A DNA stretch of 64,000 nucleotides, from the NCBI GenBank assembly GCA_051294905.1, contig CM119372.1, positions 3,288,001-3,352,000 of the forward strand, read 5' to 3'. Of the stretch, positions 6,793 to 59,200 are shown in pieces; the stretch's first letter is position 1; the number at the start of each line of letters is the position of its first letter. A program made the position numbers and the translations under genes. A model generated the notes under the pieces. That model saw only the letters and a program-made list of their open reading frames with translations, had not been told where the DNA came from and made no database searches. Source of the stretch: Botryllus schlosseri. Taxonomy: Eukaryota.

Positions 6793-8976
6793 TCAAAAAC
6801 GTTTTTGCCCTGATCGAGCATACGCAAACGGAATCAATACTAGCAACGCTATTACAGTCGCCGCAATGAAGACCACCACGACAACATTGATCACGCCCAC
6901 TCCAGGAGACTTCTCTTCCTCAGTAGCTCCACGGGGCATAGTCGCCGCAATGCGCGTGATCACATCGTCCAGATATTCATCCATACCGTTAATAGTAATT
7001 TGCCCCGAGCCATCGGAACCATTGAACACGAAAATTGGTCCGATCCAGGCCACGGGGGGTGCGCTACGTCTTACACGCGAAGATCGGCATCTTACGTTGT
7101 CGGCGGCAGGGGAGCATACCTGAGAATGTGAAATGTAATACGCAGATATCCGGACGAAGAGAAATTATTACGCTACCCACCTCTACATCGTCACTGGCAC
7201 AGGACATCAACTCCGCGTGAATGTAGAATTCCGTGCATTGCAACGTACGTGGCGTTTGAAAGGAGACGCAGGCGATGTCCGATGTAAAGGACGAACGAAT
7301 TTTCGACAGTAAGCCCGACTGAGCGGTGCATCCATCAACGACTATGTCAAGTACACTGCGGCTTGATTCGTCACCGGAACAAGACAAGTACATTTGAGTG
7401 ATTCCGGTGTTCATGGCCCCGGACTAAAACATGAGAAAGGATAAGAAAATGATGGTGCCACAAGTCCAGCCTATCACTTACGTCCAGCGACATGGTAACA
7501 TGTATCAATTCACCCACAGTATAAGAGGCTCCTCCGCTAACCTTGTATATGTCCGGGCAACTACCAGGGCAAGTAGGGACCTTGCACAAGGAAATAGTTG
7601 GGAAGATATCCGTCTTTGAAACCACCAAGCCTGGATTGCTGACTCTGCAATATAACCGGGAAACATGATAGAGATATATCGATTGAAGGTACAAGGACAC
7701 GAAAAAAAAGTAAATCTTTTACACTGGTTGAATCGATGTAACGAGCTCGTACACGCGACTGTACGTGCACTGAAACTCGACGGCGGGGATTGGCATGTCG
7801 AACATAGCGCTGCCAAGTTCTCGATTGAACCACATTTGGTTTGTGAATACGACGCCCTCTTCAGTTCGTCGCGACGTGGTGTTGCAGGCCGAGAACGGCA
7901 GGGGAATCGTCATCTCATACGCGCCGTTTGTTGGGAAATATACTGTTGAAAACTTCTTCGTTAAAATAAATGCATGATCATAATTAGATTCAGTTACATT
8001 TGCACGCCGAACGAGTGTGTTCATGGAGGCTGGGTGCTACCGATATGTAGCTATTCTTCATGCCCAGGTCGTATTCGTCGACGAAGTTTTCGGAGACGCT
8101 CAACACAATTTTGTCAGATTCGCACCGCAATACAGGAACAGCTTGATCGTAGCCACAAACATCAGTAAGCATCGCCAACTAGAAAACAGCAAACGCCCAG
8201 GTACTCACGAACAGCGCAGTTCTTTCCCAGGTAACCGGTATCACTACGGCAGTAATAGCCACCAGCGTGCTTACACGACTCGTAGCAGGAACAATCACCA
8301 ACGCAGGGATTCGGGCTGCATGCGGATGGTGTCAAATCTAAATGGTAAGCGGGAGTTAGCATTCCCCCCGCCCATATACTGTCGACTATATGCTTCTTAC
8401 CTGCAAGACAGTTCGAACAATCGACTCCCCCGCAGCCGTCCGGGCATATACATTGGTAGCTGGATTCCGATATTGTAATGCATATTTGGTTTTCATGAGT
8501 ACAAGGTCGCGTATCGCAAACGTTTCGGATCCGCCTAGCGTCTGTGACGATATGAAGCGTAAAGCTTACGTAATACACCATTTTCATGGACATCAATCCT
8601 CTCACCTTGCAGGCAGTTGGAACAGTTGGCGCCTTGACAATCCGGGTGGCAGACACACTCGTAGTCAGTGTGGGATAACGCATTACATACGTGGTTCACG
8701 TTCGGACAAGGCCGAGCATTGCAACTGGCATTACCACATTCACTAGAGCACACACAGCGGTAGTCTGTCTCAGATAAGGGATGGCATTGTTGGTTACCAT
8801 CGACGCACGGCCCAGTATCGCAAACGTTCGGTATTTTCTCGTCGGTAGCACCAGCCACGGCCAGAACGCAGCTCAAAGCGAGGAACCTGAATACACGTCT
8901 ATTGTATAGTCACATTTAGCGTTAACTCTGAAACGTCTTCCAGCTATACTCACGTAAAGTAACATGTCAAAACCAT
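6793..8976 (-). CDS. EGF-repeat + zona pellucida (ZP) domain transmembrane protein, 556 aa, vitelline-coat-like
   Basis: Nine phase-consistent GT-AG exons: 8976-8954, 8886-8606, 8541-8401, 8337-8209, 8141-7998, 7942-7723, 7644-7482, 7423-7181, 7119-6793 (1671 nt). Signal peptide MVLTCYFTFLALSCVLAVAGA, four EGF-like modules, ZP-N (CESDKIVLSV..CNT..FTN..VEFQCTY), ZP-C, furin site RVRR, EHP-like WIGPIFV, TM helix, short tail. Confidence 0.92.
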
Positions 8977-27900: not shown

Positions 27901-30235
27901 TGTATACTTGATCAGTAACGCTGAGCATTTTGGCAACATCTGAAGTTTCAACGTGAATGGTCTTGTGAATGGATGGCATGAAGTGTCTTTTTTATCAACG
28001 TTGACCAACGAATATGATGACATGAATCCGAAATGCAATTTTATACTTATAATAAGCATCTAAATTTCCCCCACCTATATATCACACACTTGCAGGTCGT
28101 ATCTTCATCTGAAGCATCAACGCCGGTCCCTTCCATGAACAGCGCGAGTAAAGTATTAAAAAAGAGACGAATTTCACCTTCAGCAAAAAGGCGAAGTAGG
28201 TCGGTATATTTACGATTGTGCTGTCAATACATCGTTGTAAATTGGTGGAAGTTTTTATTGCGGCTTACATGTAATGTGTAGTGTGCACGCCAGTTGCTTG
28301 GAGACGTGCGCGTTGCGTCTGGGATGCAGATAACGTACTTTTCACGGCTCCCTAATAATTACTTATTGCGTATGTGATGTCTAATCTCGGTCGGATAGAA
28401 TTCAGCGTTCTTGTTACACGTTGTACAATCAGCACACCGCATTTCAGATTGAGGTTGATAGCCTTTCTTGAACAGAAGAAGAAGCAGCAAGATGAACTCG
28501 GTGATTCGACGCCGGAAAAGTAAATGTATGTATATATCAAAATACGAGTCGCTTTTGATCTGAGGTCTCAAAAACGCGGCATAAGAAATATGTCATACTA
28601 TGCTACACAATAGGGTGGTCCAAAAATAACTTTATTTCCCGGATGCCGGGGATTGACTGATTAAATTGTCACGTTGCCTTAAAAAACGCTCCACACCAAG
28701 TTTGGCTTAATTCCAACCGGTATAAGCCGCCGCAGAGCCAATTAAAATTTGTGAAGTTATTATAAAAAATTAAAATAAAAAAGTTTCCAATTTTACTGTC
28801 AACCCAATGAAATTGTCGAGTTGTTTACAAAAACGATGCAAAACAAATTTGACGCAATTCCAACCGGTGGAAGCGAAGTTATATGAATTTTTCATTCACA
28901 ATTCTGCGAATTCCCACGGACAATGCTATTTTTGCGTATCCATAATTTTCAACTGCAATAACTTCGCTTGTACCGGTTAAAAGTGATCATAAATTGTTAT
29001 ACATCGTTCTTTTAGGCAACTTAAAACAAAATTTATAATAAATTTAAAAGTTCCAAGTGGCTCTGCGGCGGCTTCTAATTTTTAGAATTGCCCCAAATTT
29101 TGTTGGCAGCATTTTTGAGGCAGTCTAACGAAATTTAATCAGTGAATCCACGGAATCCGAAAGAATAAGTTATTTTTGAACAACCCTACACATTTGTGAA
29201 CATGACGCAGGCAAAGTGCAATGAAATAGGCATGGTCGACATAATACCGATATCGTAATTGTGATTAAAACTGAAATTATATTCTTTGTGGTAGCATAAA
29301 TGGTACATGTTTGGGCTTTCCGCATCTTTCATACTTAGTAAGACGTCACTGATAAGTGATTCTCAACCTCTTTGTCTTCGTGGACCCCCTTTGAATCGTC
29401 ATGGACCACGCGGACCCCCCAAGTTTGAGTTCAAATTTAGCTCAATTATCCTTCAACCGCAATCTGTCTTAAGCAAATATGAATTGTAGGCTATATTGAT
29501 AAACAGTAACAAAATGAATTTTCTTGAAAGTAACATCATACTATTTATGTGGAAATTGGGAGGACTTCTATTATTATTATCTCAAAGCGAACTATGTAGC
29601 TGCATTTCTTGAATACGCGTTCGTGCCTTTCCAATCCACGCTGTCGATTTGATATTAACGAGTGCCGAAAATCCATTTTCACAAAGACACCTGATGGCCA
29701 ATGTAATAATAACACGTAACGCTTCCGACGACATCTTTGGGAATGTACTCGACATATATGGCACGAAAATTGAGAAACAAAACATTAACGTCGAACCTAG
29801 TTCTTCCCATATAGCAGCTCATTTTGAAGTTAATCTGGAATAGTGGTTATGTATATCGCAGGAGAAAAAGGATTTTTGCTAACAAATTTGTTCCAAAACC
29901 AAAACAAAACATCCCTCAACAACAATATGTTTGCATCAGTAGCCTATTGACAGTAGAATATTTCATCTCAGACGACCATTCTGTTTATGTGAGTGCTGAA
30001 GTTTTAGCAGTTATGAAGCGAAAATGCCACCTGATTTCTCTAATTAAAAAAATACAAATTAGGTTATAAAACGTAATACAAATTAGGTTATCAACAATTT
30101 TACAAATTCGCAGGTTTCGCATACCACCTGACAATGCGTCTCGTACCACCGGTTGAGAACCAGTGAATTATGCAATTCAATATGTACGTTTGAACTTTTC
30201 GCAATTTCAGGAAAGTCCTAGTTGCGAAGTCATGA
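24982..30235 (+). CDS. Uncharacterised ~183-aa low-complexity protein with basic NLS-like segment
   Basis: Phase-consistent exons 24982-24993 (exon begins 24861), 25535-25667, 26403-26470, 27489-27626, 28096-28199, 28448-28519, 30211-30235, with canonical sites. Last exon uncertain: unspliced read-through stops at TAA 28521-28523. Confidence 0.7.
26760..27942. mobile_element. Degenerate family G termini (AGTAG-rich) flanking a coding exon
   Basis: Left CATAGCTGGTCAAAGTAGTCAGCGTTGCTACTCAAG and right ...CATTTTGGCAACATCTG resemble the terminus of 45217-45482; no TSD. Confidence 0.5.
28611..29188. mobile_element. Foldback MITE family C, diverged copy
   Basis: TAGGGTGGTCCAAAAATAACTT...AAGTTATTTTTGAACAACCCTA; homologous to 42932-43547. 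Confidence 0.8.
29582..29785 (-). pseudogene. Buster/Charlie (ZBED5-like) transposase C-terminal remnant within element ~29354-30165
   Basis: FPKMSSEALRVII...LCENGFSALVNIKS...MQLHSSL resembles the Buster YPxLxxxALxxL..YLCExGFS..IKxK..QxHxSH pattern; flanked by TTCTCAACC/GGTTGAGAACC TIR remnants. Confidence 0.75.
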
Positions 30236-40059: not shown

Positions 40060-43000
40060 ATGATACGGTTTTGTATCGCGTTGGCGATTGTTAGTATAGC
40101 AGGTGAAGATAATAATACATCAATTCAACTATATGTAATGGAGATGACCTATATGTTATCTCCGTGGAGATACTGTACGCTTTGCGTGGTTAAGCACAAG
40201 TTAACTTTGACAATTTTAAACACTCAATTTCGAAATCAGTAACTTTATACCAGCTGGAGTCAAGAGGGTTTATATTACATGAAATTTTGATGTAAAAAAA
40301 AATCGAAGGAACCTTGAAAACTGATGAAAAAATGAGTAGAGTAGATGAAGATATACCCATGCATATCATAGGAAATATTTATTTGACAATGCTGTATATC
40401 ACGCTGTACAATTAGATCGGGTCTTTCATCAATTGCTCCGTATCGCTAAAATACGGGAGATTGACGGCTGAAACGTGCGTGGAAAATTTAGGCGCGGTGT
40501 AAGAATCATCACAAGAGATGCGAAATAAATAGCTTCCACACTCCCGACGCTGATGTAGTCAAACAAGATAGAGCCGAACCCCTATAATAATGTGTGTATA
40601 TATGCATTTAGTTCTTACACTGTTCCGAACATATTAATTGCTATTCCCCGGTTGATGCATTTGACGACGGTCAAAAAGTCAGTATGTACTTCAGCATTGT
40701 GGCATAATGTGGACCCAGTTGTCGCTAAGTATCGTGTACGTACATTAATATATTAATTCACTGACATGTAGGGTTGGAATTAGCAATACGACGACGGTGA
40801 CGAGGAGATAGCGCAGTGGTATAATCCACAGCTGCAAAACCAACAGTTTACGGGAGGAGTCCGACCGAGGTCGACTCCAGAATTTCTCTAAGTGTTGGAG
40901 GTTTATCGAGGCTCTTCCTCGCCACCTCATCCGTGTAAGCGATGTCTTTTGAGTGCCTAGAAATGCATCGACCATGCTACCAGTTGGTAGCTAGGGAATA
41001 AAACTGAAGGAAATTTGCCTGGTGTAAAATGAATGTTGTAGTCGAAAAACACCATGAATATCCCAAAAAATATGACGTTAGTGACGTCATGAGGTTCACG
41101 TTCGCGTTCACACATAACCTTTCAAAAAGGTTCGCGTTCACACGAACCTGAACCTTTCCGAGGTTCACACCATCCCCAGACCATTATCCATTCTGTTTCA
41201 AGGCAGTATCTCCGCCGGTCACGATAACTTTTGAGCAGAGTCGGACAACTAGACAATTTTCAGCTATTATAAATTAGATTAGTATTGGGAAGTTTGTTCA
41301 GTTCCTTTCACGATTAGAAGTGCTCAATTCACAAAATTAATTAATTCCGAATCAGGAAGAAATACGACACAAGTCACGTTCATATCAAATCACAGTTCAT
41401 TCCCATATGCATAAAAATAGTAAATGTATGTGCACCAAGTTTGGTTCGTTTCACACTATACTGTTTTCCCGTTACATTTTCAGGAAAGCAGAAGTTAGAA
41501 TCGAATTACAATTAGAGCATAAATATATTTTAATGGTTAGGATAGAATTAAAATACCCATTAATTAGACAAGTCCAAGTTTGCTTTTAACTAGTTATCCC
41601 ACTTATCTGCCCCTTGCGAAATCGTGACCACTAGCGATTATACGGTCTTACAAACGACAATAATTTCCAGGGGCAATGAATGACACAACTACGGAAATTG
41701 ATGTTACTCCGCTTTCAACCACAAACGAATCAGTTGACGCTGGTTTGACAACTTGGCTCACAAATGTTTTCGGTGGAGAGAGAATACTGTATGTCCTTAT
41801 CGTGACGATATTTTTTATTCTGGTCTCACTGATTCTCGCGGTGTGTTTGATCTGCAAAAGGTAAGAAATTCCTCATGTCTGCATACCGTTTCCTGTTACG
41901 GAGAACAATGTGTATATGTGGTGTTACATTGAAAGCAAACATGATAAAACAAGGCCCTTGTTTAATAAATGTTTTTTATTGTTTTTTTTAAGCCATGACG
42001 TCTGGAATATTCAACTGTGACGTCATAGTGGATTGACATTGAACATTGAAAATATAGGGTAAATATAGCTCCTTTGATGAAATATCTACGTACTATAGCT
42101 GTTGAACCGATTATTTTGAGGTCTCCAACCATCCCATATCGTATACGTCGGCTATATCGGGTGGCAATCGCCCGTAGCCTCATACAACATGTTTTTGAAA
42201 AGTATTTACGCAATTATGGCATAATTTAAATATACAACTTTAAAAACACAATTTAAAGGCCTTTGTTTAAAACACATATTAAACAAAGTATTTCAAACCA
42301 CCATCTGTATTAAATGCAACCCTATCTATATGTACTGTATATGGTTGCGTGGGATTTGAGGAAATGAGCATGAGCATGTATCACAATCACGAACGACACT
42401 TGAGCAACGAGAACGCAACACCTTCGCATATGACACTTCAGCATGCGACTTTATAACTCATACCCCGAGCCCAACCCAACACACACTGTGCAATACTGAG
42501 TTTTATCGTTGCGAAAGGCCATTGCGGGCATAACCTATACATTTACCCCGCCATTCGTTCAATAATACCTAGAATTGAATTTCATTCGCTCTAAGAGCTG
42601 CTCACTCGATTGTACCTAACACGGATTAGTTGAACATGCCACAATTGTCTGAAATATATCGTAAATCAGCATGGGTCTACGTATTCTGAACTCCGACCTA
42701 GCTGTCACGAGATGTCTGTGGCGCGTTTGTAATGACTGGAGTCATGACATGACCCAACTCGAGTCCCACTGCAGTCGAAAATTTTCAGTGAATCAACTTA
42801 ACTTGAGTGACACTTTGTGTATTGACTCGACTTTAATTCGAGTCTTTGCGCATGATTCGACCCAGTCATATATATATATATACGACCCACGACAAATCGA
42901 CCCTGAAACTGTCTTTTATACGTTTAAATAATAGGGCTGTTCAAAAATAACTTTTTTCCCGGATTCCAGCCATTCACTGATTAAATTGTCAGGTTACCCT

Positions 43001-46000
43001 AAAAAACGCTGCACACCAAATTTGGTTCAATTCTAACAAGTATAGGACTCCGCAGATCCAATTAAATTATTTAATTTATTATGGATCATTGAAGAAAAAA
43101 AATTCAAATTTTTCTGCCGACCCCATGAAATTGTTGAGCTGTCTTCAAAGACGTTGCAAAACAAATTTGAGTCAATTCCGACCAGTAGAAGCGGAATTAT
43201 GTGAGTTTTTCGATGATAATCCTCGGATTAGCCTTGATCGGTGGATAATCCGGGATTTATCAACGAAAAACTCACATAACTCCGCTTCTACTGGTCGGAA
43301 TTGACTCAAATTTGTTTTGCAACGTCTTTGAAGACAGCTCAACAATTTCGTGGGGTTGGCAGAAAAATTTGAATTTTTTTTTTTAGTTTTCCATGTTAAA
43401 TTAAAAATTTTAATTGAATTGGATCTGCGGAGTCCTATACTTGTTACAATTGAACCAAATTTGGTGTGCAGCGTTTTTAGGGTAACCTGACAATTTAATC
43501 AGTGAATGCCTGGAATCCGAAAAAAAAGTTATTTTTGAACAGCCCTATTAAATAAATAATCTTGTGTAGTGTAGAAGTGGTGTAGTGTTGTGTTGTGTAG
43601 ATGTAGCCAGAGTGGCCATTGTTGGCACTCAACTCAAGTAGAAGTAGAAGTAACGACGTAAATTCACACTCAAGTACAAGTAGAAGCAGATATTTCGAAG
43701 TATGCAAAATAATAATTATTGTATGCCTATAGTTTTGGCTAAAAAACTGAAAATTGTGAAGTAGAAGTCGTCTAAAATCATACTCTATTCAGCTAATAGT
43801 TCAAATTGACAAAACATACTTCAGTACTTCGACAAAGTATAAATACTTCTTCACTGGCCATATCTGGTGCAAAGTAAGAGAAATGAGTATATTATGAATT
43901 CGACAAACTCATCCCATCCGAGTACAGTTGTAAAAAACGAGTGGAACACTACTAGAACTCGAGACTGGACCGCAATAAGCAGTGCGACTTGGATTCTGAC
44001 TTGACCCTTTTAACCCTGACTTGAACTCGGGGAATAGAAAACGACTCGAATTGACAACAGTGAAACTATAAAAGTAAGACCGACTTGTGACTTGGAATCT
44101 TTTGAAATGGTTAGAACCCTGGTTTGTGGTATATAAATCAGAAATTATGCTCTACACGCGTGACGGATGTATCCCCATATATATGTTTCGGGCCATAAAT
44201 TAGTGTTACCATACGTCCTCCTTTAGGAGGATTTGTCCTCTGAGGACGCCTAAATGGCCTCCTTTTTGGCAATTCTTGTCCCTTTACAGCTTTTAGAGCT
44301 TCGATAGTGGATAGATTCGAATGAAAATGGGGATAAATGACGCTAAATAGGAAATTCGTCGTTCGAACGAAAGTGACGACTTTTGTTTTTAGTCAACCAA
44401 CCACAATTTCGTGGAAAATTTACCATTTCTTCCGGATTTTACTCCAGTATTCTGAATCTGAAAATTTTGAAAAAGTGTCCTCCTCTCCCGATTCCAAAAT
44501 ATGGTAACCCCACCATAAATTCAATCTTACGGCTCTGAAGTTAAAAGGCATACATAGTTTCTCGGTGATTTACAGTCAAGTGTCTAGTTCGAAAAACAAA
44601 GACCCCAAGAGACGGCGAGAAGCGTCGTCAGAAAAACGGAATATCGACGAGGAGCATTTGCAGTCATCTCATAGTCACGATGCGGCATCATCTTGCTCAC
44701 ATGACTCCTTTAACGGCAGCGAACATGGTGTCACAGATAACGTCCGTACTCCGATCGAGAACAGTCCTGCTGTGGAAGTGAATATGAAACAGGTGACATC
44801 CTTTTTCGTGCGTTGGTGGCAGTAATGGCTTCCTGAGTATGGTATGTAGAACGAATCATGCATGTTTGGTGAACATTGGCCGACTAGACGATAATGCCAA
44901 CAGTCTGTCGCGCAGGCGTAGGCCTATTTTCCTTCCAACTAATCAGTACTCTGTAGTTTGTATATACGAGACCACGGTATTTCAAAACCCACCATGGGAT
45001 TAGTCATAGCATAAACAAAGTAAACATGATTAATATAAATGTTCGACTCAGTAGCGTCATGGGCCTATATCGGAAGATCATCATATCTCAAAGCCGAAGA
45101 GGAAACAGTGTTTTTCTGAACCACATGAATATCTATTGGATATTGGTCTATGTTGTGTCCTATACTCGCCTACTGAATATTGGCAAATCACCTTGGCCAG
45201 ATGTCCCAACAGTGACCAGAGGGGGTCAGTAACGAAGTACTTCTACTTTTTGAAGTACTTGAAGTAGATTTTGCCTACTCACACTACTTTTTAAGTAGTT
45301 ATGATTTTAGACTACTTCTACTTCTACTTGACAGTTTTCAGTTTTGTAGGCAAAAATAGGCGTAGAATACCTACTTACTTACTTACTTGTGAACCACCAC
45401 TCCTACTTCTACTTGAGTAGAAATTTCGGCGTTACTTCTACTTCTACTTGAGTAGCGACGATGACTACTTTGACCACCTCTGACAGTGACTAACTACATT
45501 TGCACTGAATTCCCTTCTGTGTATAGACGGGAATTAAGGAGTATAGCCTGTTCAAATCGATCTTCATGAATCAGCGTCTTTTGCCTAACCAAAAGGTGTA
45601 AATGAAACCTTGTGTTTCATCGTTATACACCAGTGGTTCTTAACCTTGCCTCCAGCGCCCCCTAGGGGCGCTAGCGATTTTGAAGGGGGCGGAAACGCTC
45701 AGGGGGCGATATGAGGGGCGCTGAAGAAAAATGGCTTCGCAGTAAATGATGATGTAGTAGTAGTAGGACATATCCTTGGTGAGTATTCAGAGCAAATTAA
45801 CATTCCACAAAACATGTCAAATATCGAAATTTTTAGTCGCGCTGCGCGGCGACATTTGCTACATATATTTTCATAAATGTAGTGGGATATTATAATTCAT
45901 ATAAAATGGATTGCGCGTACTGTTAGATTGCCAATTTCCCCTTAAAACACTACCGTCACGCTCGCTGGGGTTATTTTCAACAAAATGTTTCGAACTTGGT

Positions 46001-49000
46001 ATTATATCCTGCAGTGAGAGCAGTGAGAGCCCCTTGTACATAAAATATGCTCTGAAGCTTTGTGCACGAAATGAATAACTAAATATGCTTGTATTTGACA
46101 GCTACAAAATCAAATCGTCAGAATATTTCTTCATCGTATCATAAAGGAAATGATACTATCGAGTGTTGTGGTCCACAACCTCACATTAACATTAAATAAT
46201 ATGAGTTGCTCCGTTTGGAATACCTTTATGGTAAAGTTATTAACTGGGTACAGTACTAGATTCAATGTGAGCAGATATATGCATCCCATTCACAGTTAAC
46301 TTACTTAGTCACACAAAGCACTAAAACAAAAACCAATACCATTAATTTCCCCGTATTGCCAATCGCAGATGTGAATTTGGGATGCGTACATCTGGCTCGA
46401 ACCACAGGGTATGAGACCGTACCAGATTGTTGTTATAATAACCTAGATTTGACCCTGAATATACCACATACAATCATTGTATGGTTTATTATTGTTAAGT
46501 TGTCCTCGAGCGCGATTGAATCGCAAAATATTTCCAATCTTAAGTCCCGAAAAGACCGACTGGATTTGACCTCTTCCCAGGACCGAAACTGCTGCAACCC
46601 AAACCCACAATTGCGTGAGCTCGAAGGTTGCCCTAAATTATTTTGGTGAATGAACATAAATTACACATCATGTTTTGACGACTCCTCTCGAAAAAATACG
46701 CCTAATTATAGGAAATAGAAATAGGCATTTCGGCGTCGGCCATTGTAACGCCACGATGCACGAAGACAAATGAAGTTCCTGCCAATATGGGACTCCGAGA
46801 AGTGTGCCAAAAAGATTGTCAGCGAGAAACCCATAGCCGAAGAGGATTGCCCCGTAAACTTCGATGTATACAAGTCTGATTGTCCATAGGTGCAAAACTC
46901 GCCCGTGCTGAATTATCACGTCGTCACAATCTGCACCACACAGCGGCAGTGTTGGGATGACTCGAGTCAGTCAACTTTTTCGTATGACTTGACTTGACTC
47001 GAGTCACTTTGGAAAAATGACTTGACTTGACTTGAGTCGGAGCTTCAAGAATGTACATTGACTCGTGACTCGGAGCAAAATTTACGAGTCAATTTCAAGT
47101 CATCAAGTAAACGGTGTCGAAGAAATCACTGTATCTTGTGTATGTTCGGATTGTTCGAGATACGCCAGTGTCACTTGTGAGAGCAACTATTCATTCACTG
47201 ATCCTACGTTACACTATCATCCATTGTTAGATCACAAATAAATTGACCGCAAACTAAACGATCACAGCTTACGCTGTCGAAGTAGTAGTAGAAGATTAAT
47301 CTAAGTAGCAATGTGTCTCTGTTTCTTAGACGGCTCGATGCTTACGTTGCGCAGTGCTCACATGTACCAACCCTCTTGTATGATTTAAATCGAACAAATA
47401 TAGTTTGTGCGTGTAAATTCTCACCGATGTGTAGATGGGTAGTGTAGGTTATTGTACCATATCAATTTGTTTCAACTACTCGAAGCTTCGTATTAGGTCC
47501 AATATTTTGGGTGATAATAACTGACTGTAGCATGTAGCTGTACAGTTACTCACGTATTTTATTACCAGTTCTACGTGTGCGTGAGGGATACAACGTCTGT
47601 TTGCATATATATTTAACTAAATATTCGTTATTTGATTTAAGATAAATGATCAATTATTCCGTCTTTCACACAGATAGAAGAATGTAATGAGTTTGAATCA
47701 TCACTCATACTTCGAAAATCCAATTTTACTTGAATTGGGACTTGACTCGTGACTTGACTTGACTTGACTCGACTTGACTCGAGTCAACTCCAAACATAGA
47801 GTGACTTGACTTGACTCGAGTCACCTTTGAAAATCGATTGACTTGACTTGACTCGAGTCAAAATGTACAATGACTCGTGACTCGAAGGTAGCGACTTGAT
47901 CCCAACACTGCCTACAGGACAAATAACATCCATCAGAGAAAAATTATTTTTCCAGTGAAGAAATACCAATTTTGAATCATGTGCTTATTTAAGTTTATTA
48001 CGTTTATGCGTTTCAATATCTTTTGACTATATAGCGGACAAGAGGTAACAAAATATCAACATGTAATGAAGTAATTTTACTAACGGGCACGCCCGAACAT
48101 GTTTAATTATTAATTACGTGGCCTTCATTTTCCAAGACAACAGCTCACTCAGAGCTACTGGTAAATCTTATTATGTGGGCTGAGAGGATAAGACATATAA
48201 ATGAAATTACCACCTGTTCATTCGTGCATTAAAGAAAATTTTGGCGCCGAGGGCAACCAGGCCACACAAACTTTGCTGACCATCGAAATCACGCGACGGG
48301 ATTTTTGAGAGCAAAGCCCCCAGACGTTTTTTTCATCACGCTGTGGTTGCCCAAGCCCCTCGTTTTTAGGGGAACTGACGAAGTGCTGTTACGTAGGGTT
48401 ACCATATTTTGGAATCGGGAAAGGAGGCCCCATTTGCAAACTTTTCAGTCTTGCAATACGTTAGTAAAATCCGGTAGAAATGGTAAATTTACCACAAAAT
48501 TGCGGTTGGTTGACTAAAAGAAGGGTCAACTTTCAGGCTCAACTCCCGAAATACAGTTTTTCTTCTAGATTTTCCGTTGGTTGAGTAAAAAAAATTCGTT
48601 GCTTACGTTCGAACCACGGTTTCCTGTTTAGCATCATTTATGCCCATTTTCACTCGAAAATATCGACCATCTTAGATCTAAAAGCTGTCAAGGAGGACGA
48701 ATTGCCATAAAGGAGGACATTTAGGCGTCGTCGAGGGATATTTTCAAAAATCTGAAAAACGAGAATAATATGGGGGTGGGGGCGCTAGAGCACGATCATT
48801 TTTGAAAGGGGGCGCTGGATGATAAAAGGTTAAGAACCACTGTTATACACGGACTCAAATGTGGGAATACTCTACGCGACTTATAGAATCAACAGAGCTT
48901 ATATCATCATTGCCATAATTGGATAGTATAGTAATTTGCCGTGTGAATATCCTAACACAAACTATATTTAGTCACCAACACCAGACAAACTCTTCCTAAA

Positions 49001-49671
49001 ATATTTCACATTAGCAAAAAAGCATATCCCAGTTTAGATCATGACGACAAGTTCGATTTTCGTATGTTCACACCCTATCAAAAATGATGGCTTTTTGCAC
49101 CAATGCGTCTTTTATTGGATAAATTAAGTCTACAATAATCGACAGACGGTAGAAGCTTTTCACATATTCTTATTGGACGTCTTATAAGATGTTGCTGTTT
49201 GGACAGATGAAGTCTACATTCAAGAATCGTGGAGGCTCATACGAAGACGTCCCTCTGCCAAACTGCTTCCCGCCACCTCCTAGCGCGCAGGAAAGCACGC
49301 CAATCTTGAGGCAAGAATCGCATGTTGCCAATAACGAGTCCTGCAGCAGAGAAAGCATCGGAGACCAAGCGATCCAAACCACCGAAAGCAAACTCCCAGC
49401 CGCTGACGAAGATGATGACGGACTCTATGATAAACTGAACGGACATTTGACCCAGGAAGCTGCCTACGCGAGTCGTAGCTCGCTTGATTCAGATCGATCA
49501 GAAAGCATTCCCATTCCGGCAGGAAAACCAGAAGCGACCATGTACGAAGACGTAAGTGAAGTACTCAAGGATGCAAGAGATTATAAATATACAAAAATCG
49601 TACCGAAAAAATCAGCGTCTGATAAAGACAATCCAGAGGAGGTTTTGTATGATCAAGTAAACAAGGAGTGA
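40060..49671 (+). CDS. Type-I single-pass membrane protein, 304 aa, transmembrane-adaptor-like with tyrosine-motif tail
   Basis: Phase-consistent exons 40060-40102 (signal peptide), 41671-41860 (Thr-rich ectodomain, TM, CLIC), 44576-44792, 49207-49671 (alternative in-frame acceptor 49189); 915 nt; AATAAA at 49757 and 49948. Confidence 0.85.
40797..41070 (+). mobile_element. tRNA-derived SINE inserted in a family A MITE fragment (~40640-41178)
   Basis: A-box-like TAGCGCAGTGG, shared body and 3' end, A tail; host sequence AATACGACG/AATATGACG repeated on both sides. Confidence 0.75.
42932..43547. mobile_element. Foldback (palindromic) hAT-type MITE family C
   Basis: ~300-bp near-identical inverted arms TAGGGCTGTTCAAAAATAAC...GTTATTTTTGAACAGCCCTA; exact TSD TTAAATAA. 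Confidence 0.92.
44201..44512. mobile_element. hAT-type MITE (family F related)
   Basis: TAGTGTTACCATA...TATGGTAACCCCA; exact TSD CCATAAAT; inverted relative at ~48394-48735. Confidence 0.85.
45217..45482. mobile_element. MITE family G (CTACTT-rich)
   Basis: CAGAGGGGGTCA...TGACCACCTCTG; exact TSD ACAGTGAC; relative at ~43608-43867. Confidence 0.85.
45631..48842. mobile_element. 3.2-kb Buster-type composite element
   Basis: Perfect TIRs CAGTGGTTCTTAACCTT...AAGGTTAAGAACCACTG; exact TSD TTATACAC; contains pieces of families E, B and F. Confidence 0.88.
46947..47910 (+). mobile_element. MITE family B (GACTT/GACTCGAGTC subterminal repeats)
   Basis: CAGTGTTGGGAT...ATCCCAACACTG; inverted full copy at 62704-63649; right part repeated at 51896-52549. 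Confidence 0.88.
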
Positions 49672-50447
49672 ACCCCATTCTTCATGCCTTTATCTCTTGT
49701 GGACGTATATTGACTATTATTTTACGATGCAGTTCAATTGGGGGCAGGGAAGTAGGAATAAATGAACGGTAGCCAATTGATAGTGGCGCAGTATGCGGAG
49801 AACAATACTACCGTGGTTGCGTATAGCTGTGTTGGCATTTCACAGCACTCGTTTTTCATGTATTCCATCTCACTATCCGATTGTTATCAGCATTTGATTT
49901 TCATTACCAAACTTCGAAGTTCGGTACATCGATATCTTCTTCGTGTTAATAAATGTTAATAGAAAGGTGGAGCCAAACATGGTCTCTACAGCAGTATATA
50001 TGCCTACCCAATAAGCTGTGATACATCGGTGACGTCGGGTCAGGGGAGGCAAGTGAGGAAGTACTTCACCTGTCGTCAGGATGAGTGAACGAAAATTGTG
50101 AAACCGCCAATTGCTATTAGTATTTTCAATCGATGTTCCTGAATGAAAAGATTCTGAACATTTTTCTCCCAAAATCGCACAATTTGCACATTTATTGTTT
50201 GAAAATAAAGCGCGAAACGAGAGGTAAGGCACCGACGACGGGCCAGGCCTCGCCATTGATAACGCCATTTATCGTAAATAGCTTAGAATTTATTGTAGCT
50301 GATATAAATCGAATGTAACTGTAAAGATTCCGAAAAGCTTCTCAACTCTCAAATTATGCGGCAGTGACATATAACGTTGCCCTTCACGCCTACATTTCAT
50401 CGCCGGTACTACAGAGCTATTTACCAACCATGCAAGAACGTGGATAG

Positions 50448-51437
50448 TAGGGATGGTGTGAACGTGCGGTTCACGTTCGCGTTTTGTGTGTGAACCTCGA
50501 AAATGTTGAGGTTCACGCTCACAAACGAACCTTGGTAGGTTCTAGGTTCGGCACTGTGAACGTTATTCATATTTTACTATTTTTCACGTCATTATAACAT
50601 CTTTGGTTGAAATTATTTGCATGTCAACTTCGCACCACTATGCATGGCGCTGGCAGCATTAAAAAAATCAACACCAAACGGGCATGCATCTTGACAATCT
50701 CAAAACTTTTACTTGCTTTGTTACAAACGTTTGCTCTAAATATCCAGCTTTCCGTTTGTGAATATTTATTGACTCTCTGCTGTGAGCTTGACTCGCAATC
50801 ACACAACACCAACAGCGAAATACACTACAAGTACGTAGTCAGCGAATGATGCTTATTCTAACCAATCAATGAAATTCATATCGTAGTCTGATGTAAAATA
50901 TCTAGCAGGCGTACGTGGTCAATCTTGATTTCATACGCTTATTGCATCATAAAAACCAAATTCGTGCGATTGGAGTGTATTTACTACTGCTGTATAACTT
51001 GTTAGTGGGGTAATATAGGTTGAGAAGTAGAGAAACCCGTTTTACACTCTTCTTAATATCAGCGTAGCAATACTCAGACGCCGAATACATTATACGGTCT
51101 GGCCTAGACCGTCAAAGCGTATAAGCTTATATTCCCTTGCAAGTCCTCGTCGAAATTCTTGGCAAAGCGACGATTTTAATGGGATTATTATATCATTTGA
51201 TTGCCCCAGTTGATACATATGGCGGGGTTTTAAACGACAGTATGTACTTCAGCATTGTTGCATTATGTGGCCCGAGTAATCGCTTAGGTATCGTAGGCTA
51301 TCACCTCACTGAAATGTTGGAATTAGCAATATGACGTCACGTGACGTCATGAGGTTCACGTTCGCGTTCACGCTGAACCTTTCAAAACTGTTCGCGTTCA
51401 CAAGAACCTGCACCTTTCAGAGCACATACCATCCCTA
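50448..51437 (+). mobile_element. hAT MITE family A, intact (duplicate at 55087-56075)
   Basis: TAGGGATGGT...ACCATCCCTA; exact TSD GTGGATAG. Confidence 0.92.
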
Positions 51438-53845
51438 GTGGATAGCTATGACGTTATTTGTAATTCGAGGTTGTAGCCTAATTTAGCATGCAACGTCCAC
51501 TACAGTTCGCGCCGTAGATCAGGAAGATAATGTGTATTTGAAAACTGCGTTATTGTCATATGGGCGTGGGCTTCGTTATGTCTGCTATTCTCTTTGACCA
51601 ATCAACGTATCGTGCAATCCAAGATTCCGAGTCGGGTACATCCAATTCGCGAGTGATATTGGTCGCCGGCAGGACGGTATATATTTATTTTGCCACGAGA
51701 ATAATTAGTCTGGCCGTGCTGAAAATTTACCAACAAGTTGCTACAATTTTGGTCAATTCAGTACAAAAATAAATTTTTGGCAAAGAGCGATATCTTATAC
51801 CCAAAATAGTCATATATGGCTTGATAGCCATAGGTTCCCGACCACTGGTCTAGGCCCTAGAGCCAAGGGCTCCATGAACCAGTCTCAGAGTCCCGAACGA
51901 TCACAGCTTACGCTGTCGAAGTAGTAGTAGAAGATTAATCTAAGTAGCAATGTGTCTCTGTTTCTTAGACGGCTCGATGCTTACGTTGCGCAGTGCTCAC
52001 ATGTACCAACCCTCTTGTATGATTTAAATCGAACAAATATAGTTTGTGCGTGTAAATTCTCACCGATGTGTAGATGGGTAGTGTAGGTTATTGTACCATA
52101 TCAATTTGTTTCAACTACTCGAAGCTTCGTATTAGGTCCAATATTTTGGGTGATAATAACTGACTGTAGCATGTAGCTGTACAGTTACTCACGTATTTTA
52201 TTACCAGTTCTACGTGTGCGTGAGGGATACAACGTTTGTTTGCATATATATTTAACTAAATATTCGTTATTTGATTTAAGATAAATGATCAATTATTCCG
52301 TCTTTCACACAGATAGAAGAATGTAATGAGTTTGAATCATCACTCATACTTCGAAAATCCAATTTTACTTGAATTGGGACTTGACTCGTGACTTGACTTG
52401 ACTTGACTCGACTTGACTCGAGTCAACTCCAAACATAGAGTGACTTGACTTGACTCGAGTCACCTTTGAAAATCGATTGACTTGACTTGACTCGAGTCAA
52501 AATGTACAATGACTCGTGACTCGAAGGTAGCGACTTGATCCCAACACTGCCTACAGGACAAATAACATCCATCAGAGAAAAATTATTTTTCCAGTGAAGA
52601 AATACCAATTTTGAATCATGTGCTTATTTAAGTTTATTACGTTTATGCGTTTCAATATCTTTTGACTATATAGCGGACAAGAGGTAACAAAATATCAACA
52701 TGTAATGAAGTAATTTTACTAACGGGCACGCCCGAACATGTTTAATTATTAATTACGTGGCCTTCATTTTCCAAGACAACAGCTCACTCAGAGCTACTGG
52801 TAAATCTTATTATGTGGGCTGAGAGGATAAGACATATAAATGAAATTACCACCTGTTCATTCGTGCATTAAAGAAAATTTTGGCGCCGAGGGCAACCAGG
52901 CCACACAAACTTTGCTGACCATCGAAATCACGCGACGGGATTTTTGAGAGCAAAGCCCCCAGACGTTTTTTTCATCACGCTGTGGTTGCCCAAGCCCCTC
53001 GTTTTTAGGGGAACTGACGAAGTGCTGTTACGTAGGGTTATCATATTTTGGAATCGGGAAAGGAGGCCCCATTTGCAAACTTTTCAGTCTTGCAATACGT
53101 TAGTAAAATCCGGTAGAAATGGTAAATTTACCACAAAATTGCGGTTGGTTGACTAAAAGAAGGGTCAACTTTCAGGCTCAACTCCCGAAATACAGTTTTT
53201 CTTCTAAATTTTCCGTTGGTTGAGTAAAAAAAATTCGTTGCTTACGTTCGAACCACGGTTTCCTGTTTAGCATCATTTATGCCCATTTTCACTCGAAAAT
53301 ATCGACCATCTTAGATCTAAAAGCTGTCAAGGAGGACGAATTGCCATAAAGGAGGACATTTAGGCGTCGTCGAGGGATATTTTCAAAAATCTGAAAAACG
53401 AGAATAATATGGGGGTGGGGGCGCTAGAGCACGATCATTTTTGAAAGGGGGCGCAGGATGATAAAAGGTTAAGAACCACTGTTATACACGGACTCAAATG
53501 TGGGAATACTCTACGCGACTTATAGAATCAACAGAGCTTATATCATCATTGCCATAATTGGATAGTATAGTAATTTGCCGTGTGAATATCCTAACACAAA
53601 CTATATTTAGTCACCAACACCAGACAAACTCTTCCTAAAATATTTCACATTAGCAAAAAAGCATATCCCAGTTTAGATCATGACGACAAGTTCGATTTTC
53701 GTATGTTCACACCCTATCAAAAATGATGGCTTTTTGCACCAATGCGTCTTTTATTGGATAAATTAAGTCTACAATAATCGACAGACGGTAGAAGCTTTTC
53801 ACATATTCTTATTGGACGTCTTATAAGATGTTGCTGTTTGGACAG

Positions 53846-54310
53846 ATGAAGTCTACATTCAAGAATCGTGGAGGCTCATACGAAGACGTCCCTCTGCCAA
53901 ACTGCTTCCCGCCACCTCCTAGCGCGCAGGAAAGCACGCCAATCTTGAGGCAAGAATCGCATGTTGCCAATAACGAGTCCTGCAGCAGAGAAAGCATCGG
54001 AGACCAAGCGATCCAAACCACCGAAAGCAAACTCCCAGCCGCTGACGAAGATGATGACGGACTCTATGATAAACTGAACGGACATTTGACCCAGGAAGCT
54101 GCCTACGCGAGTCGTAGCTCGCTTGATTCAGATCGATCAGAAAGCATTCCCATTCCGGCAGGAAAACCAGAAGCGACCATGTACGAAGACGTAAGTGAAG
54201 TACTCAAGGATGCAAGAGATTATAAATATACAAAAATCGTACCGAAAAAATCAGCGTCTGATAAAGACAATCCAGAGGAGGTTTTGTATGATCAAGTAAA
54301 CAGGGAGTGA
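53846..54310 (+). CDS. Duplicate of the terminal signalling exon of the 40060 gene
   Basis: Intact copy with identical acceptor; single amino-acid change (VNKE to VNRE). Confidence 0.6.
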   Translation: MKSTFKNRGGSYEDVPLPNCFPPPPSAQESTPILRQESHVANNESCSRESIGDQAIQTTESKLPAADEDDDGLYDKLNGHLTQEAAYASRSSLDSDRSESIPIPAGKPEATMYEDVSEVLKDARDYKYTKIVPKKSASDKDNPEEVLYDQVNRE

Positions 54311-57094
54311 ACCCCATTCTTCATGCCTTTATCTCTTGTGGACGTATATTGACTATTATTTTACGATGCAGTTCAATTGGGGGCAGGGAAGTAGGAATAA
54401 ATGAACGGTAGCCAATTGATAGTGGCGCAGTATGCGGAGAACAATACTACCGTGGTTGCGTATAGCTGTGTTGGCATTTCACAGCACTCGTTTTTCATGT
54501 ATTCCATCTCACTATCCGATTGTTATCAGCATTTGATTTTCATTACCAAACTTCGAAGTACGGTACATCGATATCTTCTTCGTGTTAATAAATGTTAATA
54601 AAAAGGTGGAGCCAAACATGGTCTCTACAGCAGTATATATGCCTACCCAATAAGCTGTGATACATCGGTGACGTCGGGTCAGGGGAGGCAAGTGAGGAAG
54701 TACTTCACCTGTCGTCAGGATGAGTGAACGAAAATTGTGAAACCGCCAATTGCTATTAGTATTTTCAATCGATGTTCCTGAATGACAAGATTCTGAACAT
54801 TTTTCTCCCAAAATCGCACAATTTGCACATTTATTGTTTGAAAATAAAGCGCGAAACGAGAGGTAAGGCACCGACGACGGGCCAGGCCTCGCCATTGATA
54901 ACGCCATTTATCGTAAATAGCTTAGAATTTATTGTAGCTGATATAAATCGAATGTAACTGTAAAGATTCCGAAAAGCTTCTCAACTCTCAAATTATGCGG
55001 CAGTGACATATAACGTTGCCCTTCACGCCTACATTTCATCGCCGGTACTACAGAGCTATTTACCAACCATGCAAGAACGTGGATAGTAGGGATGGTGTGA
55101 ACGTGCGGTTCACGTTCGCGTTTTGTGTGTGAACCTCGAAAATGTTGAGGTTCACGCTCACAAACGAACCTTGGTAGGTTCTAGGTTCGGCACTGTGAAC
55201 GTTATTCATAGATTACTATTTTTCACGTCATTATAACATCTTTGGTTGAAATTATTTGCATGTCAACTTCGCACCACTATGCATGGCGCTGGCAGCATTA
55301 AAAAAAATCAACACCAAACGGGCATGCATCTTGACAATCTCAAACTTTTACTTGCTTTGTTACAAACGTTTGCTCTAAATATCCAGCTTTCCGTTTGTGA
55401 ATATTTATTGACTCTCTGCTGTGAGCTTGACTCGCAATCACACAACACCAACAGCGAAATACACTACAAGTACGTAGTCAGCGAATGATGCTTATTCTAA
55501 CCAATCAATGAAATTCATATCGTAGTCTGATGTAAAATATCTAGCAAGCGTACGGGGTCAATCTTGATTTCATACGCTTATTGCATCATAAAAACCAAAT
55601 TCGTGCGATTGGAGTGTATTTACTACTGCTGTATAACTTGTTAGTGGGGTAATATAGGTAAGAAGTAGAGAAACCCGTTTTACACTTTTCTTAATATCAG
55701 CGTAGCAATACTCAGACGCCGAATACATCATATGGTCTGGCCTAGACCGTCAAGGCGTATAAGCTTATATTCCCTTGCAAGTCCTCGTCGAAATTCTTGG
55801 CAAAGCGACGATTTTAATGGGATTATTATATCATTTGATTGCCCCAGTTGATACATATGGCGGCATTTAAAACGACAGTATGTACTTCAGCATTGTTGCA
55901 TTATGTGGCCCGAGTAATCGCTTAGGTATCGTAGGCTATCACCTCACTGAAATGTTGGAATTAGCAATATGACGTCACGTGACGTCATGAGGTTCACGTT
56001 CGCGTTCACACTGAACCTTTCAAAACTGTTCGCGTTGACAAGAACCTGCACCTTTCAGAGTACATACCATCCCTAGTGGATAGCTATGACGTTATTTGTA
56101 ATTCGAGGTTGTAGCCTAATTAAGAATGCAACGTCAACTACAGTTCGCGCCGTAAATCAGGAAGATATGTGTATTTGAAAACTTCGTTATTGTCATATGG
56201 GCGTGGGCTTCGCTATGTCTGCTATTCTCTTTGACCAATCAACGTATCGTGCAATCCAAGATTCCAAGTCGGGTACATCAAATTCGCGAGTGATATTGGT
56301 CGCCGGCACGACAGTATATATTTATTTTGCCACGAGAATAATTAGTCTGGCCGTGCTGAAAATTTACCAACAAGTTGCTGCAATTTTGGTCAATTCAGTA
56401 CAAAAATAAATTTTTGGCAAAGAGCGATATCTTATACCCAAAATAGCCATATATGGCTTGATAGCCATAGGTTCCCGACCACTGCTGGTCTAGGCCCTAG
56501 AGCCAAGGGTTCCATGAACCAGTCTCAGAGTCCCGCAGAGGTCAAGACACACGCTCAACTCATACATATGATCCGTGATGATACGGCCGTTTTGCTCATA
56601 TCATGGGTTGCAGGTAATACTGACTCCCGATTGATAGTCGAATTGAGACTGTTGTGGTAGCACATCGTGCGCAGTGGCGTACACTGGGAGGTTGGGAATT
56701 TGAAATCGAAACCCAGTCCATCGGAAAACAATCTTATCTCAAGTATGGCTCATTTATAATTAAGCAATTGGTATCACGCTGTTGCGTTTTGACCGAAGAA
56801 TAACGGTCCCATTGTCGCAGGTGGGGGCTCGCATTTCTTAGCTTGTATCTGTGAGAGGGAAATGATTTGCAGTAAATGTTAATTATACTAATTTCGTTTT
56901 CAATGAAAATTTCATTTTAATGGTTTTGTTCTTTTAACACTCTGATGATGCACAGGTCATTTTGTGAAGCAGTGATCTATAGTTATGTATTAGATGTGTA
57001 TTGTGGTAAATTTTTGTTTTATGACTCTATGGGGGCTCCGCGAAGGCTTGCAGATTAGCGTAAGTGTTACTCGGGTTAGTAAAGGTTAGACTGT

Positions 57095-57425: not shown

Positions 57426-58090
57426 TATTTACACGGAGAAACTGCTTTTATTGAAGCGCATCTTCAGATCTAGGATCTACATCCATAATTGGATACGGAA
57501 TTTCAATGCATGAAACACTAAAATTTTGATGTTGGGAGGACTGTAGGAAAGAATAAATGAAATAGGAAAAAACATATTTGAAATCTAGTGCAGATTTGTA
57601 ATTTATGAGCGGACTGATGCTATTGTGACTGTCCGCAATATGCGCTGAATCGCACAAACCCTCCACTCATGAACAGATGATAAAACGACCGTAGGCTACT
57701 GCCCAGCACACTTTGAATTGGTTATTCGATGCTCATTCCACCAGATCAGTGCTCTCTAACCTGTGGGATTGTACGGAATGTACGCACTTGTGCGGATGAC
57801 AAACGCAGCGCGGATGAATATCGCGCATATAGTTCTGGCTTTTCTGACGTCGCATAATTCAGTTAACCTTTGATAGAAAATGTCACTACAGTGGCTTCCT
57901 AACGTTTGTCGTTTGTACATCTCCGAGGCCACCGTGTTGGGTACTATAGCGAATACGAAAGACACGCAGAAAAGTCGTTTCTTGGTCATGAAAATGTGCC
58001 GAACTTTGTACACGCAAATTCGCGAGCATTTACGGCAAGATTTGTCCGACATTGGTTTCTCCGGAAAACACCGTCGGGGACCGTTTAGAT

Positions 58091-59200
58091 CAGGGGTGGG
58101 CAAACTTTTGAGCTTGCGGGCCGCATTCAACATCTGAATCCATTCGCGGGCCGCACTATATAAAATTGGGTTTATAAACCAAAACGCAATATTGATATTT
58201 GATTGTATAGTGGGGACATGGAGATAATATATATGCTTATTTGAAACAAGCCAAACATTGCTTTGATGATATCGTACACGCGTCAGAAACATAGCGGCGA
58301 GATTTAATTGACTGGTTGACCTCAATAACCAATTTGTCAAAACTATAGAGATGAACGTCGGTTGGCCCGATTCTTAGAACATGATTGAAATTTGAATCTG
58401 TGAGCAGCGATCTGTTCATATATTTACTAATTCCACTTTTGGTTCAGTTCCAGGACACACAATGCTGACAGCATCATAACCATGTAAGCTTCAAACACGC
58501 TTCTACTATGTGTAGATAAAATATAAATACCCCCATTCTACGTATACGGACAACGAATCTACTTAAGACACGGCCGAATCATTTTTTATAAGCGCATCAC
58601 TGAAATAATTAAAAATGGAGTATCCAATCTGAAATCCCACTGGTGATTCAAATTAGGTCAATCTCGTTGCAGCTATCCCGCTGTGATATTAAGTATTTAC
58701 GTTAGATCAGTGGTTCTTAAACTTTTTAAGACACGCCTCCACCTTATGATGGTGAAAGATTTCGCTCCCCCTTATCGTCATATCACAAAATGCAACCAGG
58801 ATGCTAGCAAACCTAACGGGTAGTTTCATGGCATGGACGGTTACGACTGTGGATGAGAGATTTTTACATATGTAATTCAGACTAATTAAAGACCAATAAC
58901 CGTGAATTGGATGTAAACCGCGGGGAGCGCGAAACATTTTTTCAGTTGAGCTCTGCTTTGCGCCCCTCTTTCTGATGCTCTCAACCCCCAAGGTGGGCAC
59001 GCCCACCAGTTTGAGAACCACTATCTTAGATTATCATGGTGAAATATACTAAGAAAAATTTAATTAAGTCCCTGCACTAATTCGATTTTTAGTACGCATT
59101 TAATCAATATTAAAAAAAAGTTTCTATAGACTCTCGCGGGCCGCACAGAACAGTGTTGCGGGCCGCATGCAGCCCGCGGGCCGTAGTTTGCCCACCCCTG
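58091..59200. mobile_element. Buster-type element with nested MITE 58708-59023
   Basis: CAGGGGTGGGCAAACT...AGTTTGCCCACCCCTG; exact TSD GTTTAGAT. Confidence 0.92.

Follow-up and report, generated by a model that had tools for sequence, protein, structure and literature searches.

The gene and its predicted product

We analyzed a 64,000-nt stretch of the Botryllus schlosseri genome (assembly GCA_051294905.1, contig CM119372.1, forward-strand positions 3,288,001 to 3,352,000; hereafter the window), which lies on a 40.6-Mb contig of the 495.5-Mb genome that we searched. Here we describe a four-exon gene in this window whose predicted product, a single-pass membrane protein with a tyrosine-rich tail, is probably a phosphotyrosine docking adaptor of some kind. 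A previous reading of the DNA letters, made without database searches (the sequence-only reading), had joined the four exons in frame, and this model held: the exons (Table 1) have canonical AG acceptors and GT donors, all phases fit, and the 915 nt encode an open 304-aa frame. The proposed layout, namely a leader, a Thr-rich ectodomain with two N-glycosylation sequons, a transmembrane (TM) helix with a CxxC motif, and a Tyr-rich tail, was recovered on recomputation, with the leader (the hydrophobic first 14–16 residues, a predicted signal peptide) judged by eye.

The ectodomain (residues 16–52) contains 9 Thr, 11 Ser or Thr among its 37 residues and sequons at N18 (NDT) and N33 (NES), with no cysteine in its mature form. 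The 19-residue Kyte-Doolittle maximum of the TM helix is 3.29, and two variants seen in RNA reads, T60A and V66L, leave it hydrophobic. The tail comprises 227–228 aa, with an isoelectric point (pI) of 5.0 (4.9 for the whole protein) and 67% disorder-promoting residues, and no catalytic domain was found in it with Pfam. All seven tail tyrosines (162, 224, 237, 263, 276, 278 and 298) are encoded by exon 4. The leader encoded by the 43-nt exon 1 is predicted, and initiation at an in-frame ATG in exon 2 (M17) would yield a leaderless product. The exons lie outside repeats, which make up 50–68% of each intron; exons 2 and 3 are single-copy in the genome, and exon 4 is present in two copies, both within the window.

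The gene is transcribed, as seen for exons 2 and 4. In a bulk RNA run (X23, of which 6% was read), the depth was 5.3 over 49250–49779, against 0.08–0.13 in two largely unique upstream bins and 0.7–2.7 in largely unique intron bins; exon 2 was covered by 11–12 reads at two positions, and the exon-3 bin had a depth of 3.0. In a single-cell run (X21), the depth of the exon-4 bin was 9.98 in one orientation versus 0.03 in the other, with 28 just downstream, a pattern that we take, from the library chemistry, to represent the plus strand with a 3' pile-up. The three junctions, 40102/41671, 41860/44576 and 44792/49207, are predicted. Checking them by RNA-seq, as had been suggested, succeeded for the coverage of exons 2 and 4 but not for the joints, none of which appeared among the 15 of 1,777 joints listed, a repeat-dominated set from a mapping that spanned 15.9 kb and was swamped by repeats. 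A contig of a further run, X1, terminates at the exon-3 donor, 44792, in the manner of a splice branch; this is not proof of splicing because another, RNA-labelled contig runs unspliced across the exon-4 acceptor. In run X1, a contig differs from exon 3 (44610–44792) at 17 of 183 bases (9%), compared with about 2% over exon 4 in another contig of the run; it may come from a second lineage within the sample or be a far-diverged allele.

Phase-compatible extra exons are few, with one candidate (45 nt) in intron 1, one in intron 2, and eight overlapping ones at four acceptors in intron 3. The sequence-only reading would have been contradicted by exons adding a large ectodomain; none was found, either among these intronic candidates, which show no resemblance to a folded domain, or among 58 non-repeat plus-strand frames of at least 55 aa between 9 and 49 kb, none of which matched Pfam (5 of 63 frames were left out as overlapping the exons). 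An in-frame upstream acceptor for exon 4 at 49153 was set aside for its poor pyrimidine tract.

Conservation and motifs of the tyrosine-rich tail

Homology searches, with single exons as queries, yielded a sole relative. Exon 4 gave 1 of 12 candidates among proteins of 84–270 aa and 0 of 323 among those of 271–2000 aa, and a two-sequence profile run against 1.84 billion representative proteins matched three, P0001, P0002 and P0003; the last two, which consist of TPR repeats (P0002) and tandem repeats (P0003), were discarded as repeat artefacts. None of 139 pattern matches in metagenome contigs and none of the exact sequence look-ups (0 of 5 and 0 of 2) provided a relative; two matches to PDB sequences, at E 1.1, were meaningless, and a Pfam match to Hantavirus Gc (E 0.048) reflected TM composition. 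In the Atlas feature search, the TM exon retrieved small TM proteins only. Two further tyrosine-tail loci of this contig showed no similarity to the protein (best E 0.25), and no paralogue was found within 100 kb on either side of the window. The expectation that homology searches would miss the gene was thus borne out, Pfam, word-indexed and profile searches having produced only P0001 as a relative.

P0001, from a Logan contig, is identical to the window protein at 110 of 154 residues (71%) over the last exon. In this genome, P0001 matches nothing but the two copies of exon 4, so it is likely either a far-diverged allele or the orthologue of a related animal. It starts with five residues resembling the translation of the intron end upstream of exon 4 here and was therefore probably called from unspliced DNA, which makes it uninformative on splicing.

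All seven tyrosines are kept in P0001. The positions from each Tyr to +3 are identical in 25 of 26 cases, versus 85 of 128 elsewhere in the exon (Fisher p=9e-4; none of 153 circular shifts reaches this value), and the lone change converts YEDV to YEEV. When the tyrosines are excluded and residue type is matched, 18 of 19 positions are kept against 12.7 expected (p=0.004). The excess shrinks in wider windows (p=0.05 at -3..+3 and 0.10 at -3..+5), with 11 of 18 residues kept at -3..-1, as expected because SH2 domains read the residues C-terminal to the phosphotyrosine; the -2 residues of Y298 (V) and Y263 (T) are conserved. The Tyr-to-+3 conservation therefore points to selection on the residues that SH2 domains read, and this comparison indicates that the gene is under selection at SH2-type motifs. 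The test put forward by the sequence-only reading, that the Tyr motifs should stand out as conserved islands, was passed for one relative over the last exon.

The tail is also enriched in such motifs: I, L or V occupies +3 of five of the seven tyrosines (100,000 shuffles, p=5e-4), and four tyrosines fit Y[DE]x[ILV], against 0 of 100,000 shuffles. [quoted passage not shown] Several labels of the sequence-only reading have to be revised accordingly. Its ITIM label is not supported, a single match being at the chance level (p=0.22, shuffles), and LIME, which has two ITIM matches, is described as yielding no detectable SHP or SHIP (PMC2194115). The hemITAM-like motif departs from the strict consensus, [ED][ED][ED]xYxxL as given in PMC12582321, through a G at -2 in the window protein, but P0001 contains one exact match. 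A likeness to LAT in the strict sense is not supported, given that Grb2 YxN sites are lacking in both the window protein and P0001. Finally, FPPPP is present where it was reported, but its reading as an EVH1 ligand was rejected, with only 2 of its 5 residues kept in P0001.

Table 1. Features of the gene and of the duplication that includes its last exon (window coordinates)
Feature	Position	Strand	Remarks
Exon 1: ATG and hydrophobic leader	40060..40102	+	GT donor; joins exon 2 in frame; outside repeats
Exon 2: 37-aa Thr-rich ectodomain, two sequons, TM helix, CxxC	41671..41860	+	11–12 bulk RNA reads at two positions; single copy in genome
TM helix I53–C76	41784..41855	+	CxxC (C73, C76) at 41844–41855, candidate palmitoylation site
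Exon 3: basic juxtamembrane patch and polar Tyr-free spacer	44576..44792	+	Single copy; one public contig (run X1) ends exactly at 44792
Exon 4: 154 aa, all seven tail tyrosines, stop codon	49207..49671	+	RNA depth; 71%-identical relative P0001
Y162 YEDV (YEEV in P0001), Src-family SH2-type site	49240..49251	+	Consensus
FPPPP	49267..49281	+	Present, not conserved: 2/5 residues identical in P0001
Y224 YDKL after acidic run, hemITAM-like	49426..49437	+	8-residue invariant block
Y237 YASR, near-match to Csk SH2 sites	49465..49476	+	Invariant in P0001
Y263 YEDV, T at -2: Src-type site and ITSM consensus	49543..49554	+	Consensus
RDYKYTKIV, longest invariant block (9 residues)	49576..49602	+	Exact fit of Y278 YTKI to the Csk SH2 library consensus
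Y298 YDQV, V at -2: ITIM consensus and nephrin-type YDxV (Nck) site	49648..49659	+	Consensus
Likely 3' untranslated region	49672..50230	+	AATAAA at 49757, 49948, 50204; single-cell read pile-up in 49780–50309
4.64-kb tandem duplication	47257..56535	+	47257–51895 / 51896–56535, 99.07% identity, head to tail

Genomic surroundings and potential partners

The last exon is included in a tandem duplication, and neither the duplication nor the second last exon figured in the sequence-only reading. The second exon 4, at 53846–54310, is intact and differs by one residue (K303R). Of the 43 differences between the two copies, 5 fall within the first 2.5 kb and 38 beyond it; the junction contains no N and shows no clear microhomology. 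At the duplication, contigs of other individuals diverge from the window by about 2–4%, similar to the distal part of the copies. Both a real duplication with later exchange and a mis-joined allele pair fit these observations. The duplication should matter little to the protein, since a stop and poly(A) signals are already present in the first copy.

Among 43 flank frames, picked by length, the neighbors include adrenodoxin, a rolling-stone gene, an EGF/ZP-domain gene, short-chain dehydrogenases and an ankyrin gene, with no immune genes. The EGF/ZP gene (~6800–8900, minus strand) is a multi-exon gene encoding Cys-rich EGF-like repeats, ZP-N and ZP-C domains and a TM helix; a search with one of its frames found no relative. 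Three short-chain dehydrogenase copies (L014–L016) lie 5–24 kb past the window end among transposon frames, and at least two of them look broken. Within the window, a ~620-bp palindromic element resembling a miniature inverted-repeat transposable element occupies 42930–43549 in intron 2, with a related copy at 28609–29188, and a 205-aa open frame at 57759–58373 on the minus strand has no Pfam match.

The genome has a cellulose synthase gene interrupted by introns, a feature characteristic of tunicates. It also contains at least 61 SH2 matches, and the three that were compared with solved structures are those of Csk, SHP and a Src-family kinase. SH2 exons of the Src-family type form clusters on contigs C5 (~12.98–13.22 Mb) and C10 (~27.1–27.6 Mb; L063–L069), which suggests tandem expansions of Src-like kinases. 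There are also long intronless frames with two SH2 domains (L042/L044 on C11 and L047/L050 on C5; 1267 aa and 609 aa) that, by eye, we take to be PLC-gamma-like and Syk-like.

A candidate Src-Csk scaffold and its alternatives

Transmembrane adaptor proteins (TRAPs) are a class defined by architecture, as described in PMC3342071, PMC4861716 and PMC2194115, and the window protein has that architecture. On the predicted junctions, its outer part is short and carries no folded domain, although at 37 residues it is longer than that of PAG, LAT or LIME; a single TM helix is followed by a tail that is non-catalytic and contains several Yxx[ILV] motifs. C73 and C76 fall within the 0–4 residues from the TM end that are given for the CxxC of palmitoylated TRAPs (PMC2194115). 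The most specific signal, which was absent from the sequence-only reading, is a pair of conserved motif types, namely, two Src-type SH2 sites (YEDV), matched with a widened pattern, and a site fitting the Csk consensus (YTKI). In PAG, as described in PMC3492796, YEEI/V Src sites are joined to one Csk site such that one molecule holds both kinases, and the Csk SH2 library consensus is Y[T/A/S][K/R/Q/N][M/I/V/R] (PMC2194115 Table I). A YE[ED][IV] site and a Csk site occur jointly in 0.045% of 200,000 tail shuffles (p=4.5e-4), and two such sites with a Csk site at p=2e-5, values that flatter the match because the patterns were picked after the sequence was seen. YASR fits the Csk SH2 domain only when +2 is widened to residues of natural sites. 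SH2 exons of Csk, SHP and Src-family kinases are present in the genome.

Taken together, these features lead us to favor, with middling confidence, the reading that this predicted single-pass adaptor, with neither a catalytic nor a folded outer domain, is likely a PAG/LIME-type scaffold that holds Src-family kinases beside their inhibitor Csk. Palmitoylation of the CxxC would place the protein beside lipid-anchored Src-family kinases, which would phosphorylate the tyrosines in acidic context. Judging from consensus, phosphorylated Y162 and Y263 (YEDV/YEEV) would bind Src-family SH2 domains, and phosphorylated Y278 (YTKI), perhaps with Y237, would bind the SH2 domain of Csk. Csk would then phosphorylate the inhibitory tail of the kinases, a negative feedback loop established for PAG, and Y224 and Y298 would add docking of Syk, SHP or Nck. 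More tentatively, the protein might be the first membrane adaptor of an invertebrate to bind Csk, whether as an orthologue of PAG/LIME that has diverged past recognition or as an equivalent that arose by convergence.

Several observations weigh against the scaffold reading. Exons 2, 3 and 4 gave no PAG, LIME, SIT or LAT match in Pfam at E<=10, none of these proteins was among the three profile matches, and the PAG1 model PF15347, run against the genome, did not match this gene (two weak matches elsewhere fall in unrelated sequence and were rejected). Thus, sequence homology did not place the protein in the PAG1 (PF15347) or LIME1 (PF15332) family. Because no homology to PAG, LIME, SIT or LAT was found, PAG/LIME-like working is proposed by inference. 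In the Atlas feature search, PAG/LIME clusters ranked 2 and 3 (0.80 and 0.77), which serves as a lead only since a third of shuffled proteins also reach ~0.8. With respect to motifs, the strict Src library consensus YE[ENY][IML] is matched by neither the window protein nor P0001; YE[ED][IV] is a widened form, made in this analysis, of the published YEEI/V (YEE[IV] occurs once in P0001 and not in the window protein), and a Csk match alone arises in 5.8% of shuffles (p=0.058). The conservation evidence comes from one relative and one exon, and the joints of the model are missing from those listed. Furthermore, the window protein has a likely leader and 37 outer residues, whereas neither PAG (16 outer residues) nor LIME (4) has a leader.

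Among the alternatives, a view close to that of the sequence-only reading, that the protein is an immune co-receptor subunit switching between ITIM/ITSM (SHP) and hemITAM (Syk) output, perhaps replacing LAT, which ascidians lack, appears doubtful. In its favor, the -2 residues of Y298 and Y263 are conserved, the hemITAM of P0001 is canonical, SHP and Syk-like SH2 exons are present in the genome, and Botryllus FcoR tails are described as using ITIM and hemITAM in an animal with no recognisable LAT or SLP-76 (PMC12582321, PMC12065747). However, the sole ITIM match is at the chance level, the strict hemITAM is broken in the window copy, and the Grb2 YxN sites that are the hallmark of LAT, NTAL and LAX are missing, as is the FcoR core-2 motif; moreover, this single-copy gene is surrounded by adrenodoxin, rolling-stone, ZP-domain and dehydrogenase genes and does not lie in a receptor cluster.

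It is unlikely that the protein is a nephrin-like multivalent platform whose Y-[DE]-x-V sites bring in Nck and trigger condensates or the assembly of actin at the membrane. The tail does contain three Y[DE]xV sites, all conserved in P0001, and YDQV fits the nephrin YDxV, three copies of which are reported to recruit Nck (PMC11247170, PMC5996060). Yet only one of the three is a true YDxV, none fits the Nck1 library pattern YDE[PDV] (PMC2271153 Table 1), the actin-linked FPPPP is lost in P0001, and the invariant YKYTKI block is left unexplained; no Nck was recognized among the SH2 matches checked, 3 of 61 having been named.

An incomplete or mis-joined gene model, that is, a receptor with a larger ectodomain or TM and Tyr exons belonging to different transcripts, is improbable. 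The unlisted joints, the small size of exon 1 and the contig that is unspliced across the exon-4 acceptor would all agree with such an error, and fast-evolving Ig domains split over small exons could escape detection. Against it, all phases fit, intron 1 offers a single 45-nt phase-compatible candidate, none of the 58 frames matches Pfam, and one and the same bulk run has reads over each of exons 2–4. It is very improbable that the protein is a small surface glycoprotein of the mucin-like kind, with tyrosines that serve mainly as YxxPhi sorting (endocytosis) signals rather than SH2 sites: Yxx[ILV] is also the AP-2 sorting consensus and the Thr-rich ectodomain has two sequons, but five motifs, an acidic +1 in four of them, and conservation of +1 and +2 besides +3 go beyond the needs of sorting.

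Ascidians are described as possessing nearly the whole ITAM/ITIM signaling kit without a recognisable LAT or SLP-76 (PMC12582321, PMC12065747), and in the open-access literature we found no published case of an invertebrate PAG/LIME-type adaptor. Disorder and rapid evolution put such adaptors beyond the reach of homology search, so that they can be found only by architecture combined with motif conservation. If the protein binds Csk and Src kinases, this control layer either predates vertebrates or evolved twice, and a palmitoylated Src-Csk scaffold would represent the 'missing' adaptor layer of ascidian ITAM/ITIM signaling, older than or separate from vertebrate lymphocytes. As a single-copy, six-peptide target, the gene makes this cheap to test.

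Comparison with known adaptors

PAG1/Cbp, as described in PMC2213442 and PMC3492796, shares with the window protein a short outer part, a single TM helix that leads into CxxC and a basic patch, and an acidic non-catalytic tail; in PMC3492796 it carries several YEEI/V-type Src sites plus a Csk site. Unlike the window protein, with its likely leader, 37 glycosylatable outer residues, 228-aa tail, 7 tyrosines and YTKI, PAG is leaderless, with 16 outer residues, a 397-aa tail, 10 tyrosines and the Csk site YSSV (PMC2213442, PMC3492796). LIME is of similar size (~300 aa), has CxxC, was identified by the same architectural criteria, and binds a Src-family kinase and Csk via separate tyrosines; however, it is reported as leaderless, with 4 outer residues, 5 tyrosines and a pI of 9.7, compared with 4.9 here (PMC2194115). 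SIT resembles the window protein in its cleaved leader and short N-glycosylated ectodomain (both predicted here), ITIM-consensus tyrosine and Csk-type site, but forms a dimer linked by a disulfide through an outer cysteine (PMC2193021), which the ectodomain of the window protein lacks, and is listed among the non-raft TRAPs (PMC2194115), whereas the window protein has CxxC. A SIT-like ectodomain with predicted glycosylation and a likely leader, combined with the PAG/LIME CxxC, is an arrangement absent among the adaptors compared, as these are described in PMC2193021 and PMC2213442.

LAT, NTAL and LAX share the TRAP layout, with CxxC in LAT and NTAL, but are described as carrying several Grb2 YxN sites (PMC3342071), in contrast to the window protein and P0001. 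The nephrin tail likewise has a C-terminal YDxV in a disordered region, but with three YDxV sites and a large Ig ectodomain (PMC11247170, PMC5996060), against one YDxV and no folded ectodomain here. Botryllus FcoR are, similarly, tunicate type I membrane proteins with ITIM, hemITAM and YxxI/L/V tails, but are characterized by Ig-Sushi-Ig-Ig ectodomains, clusters paired with FF genes and often paired [A/D]VYxxV (PMC12582321); at this locus, we found no Ig-Sushi-Ig-Ig domain or paralogue within 264 kb and no paired [A/D]VYxxV. Being no FcoR and lacking the Grb2 sites of LAT, the gene is thus a candidate for the PAG slot more than for the LAT slot.

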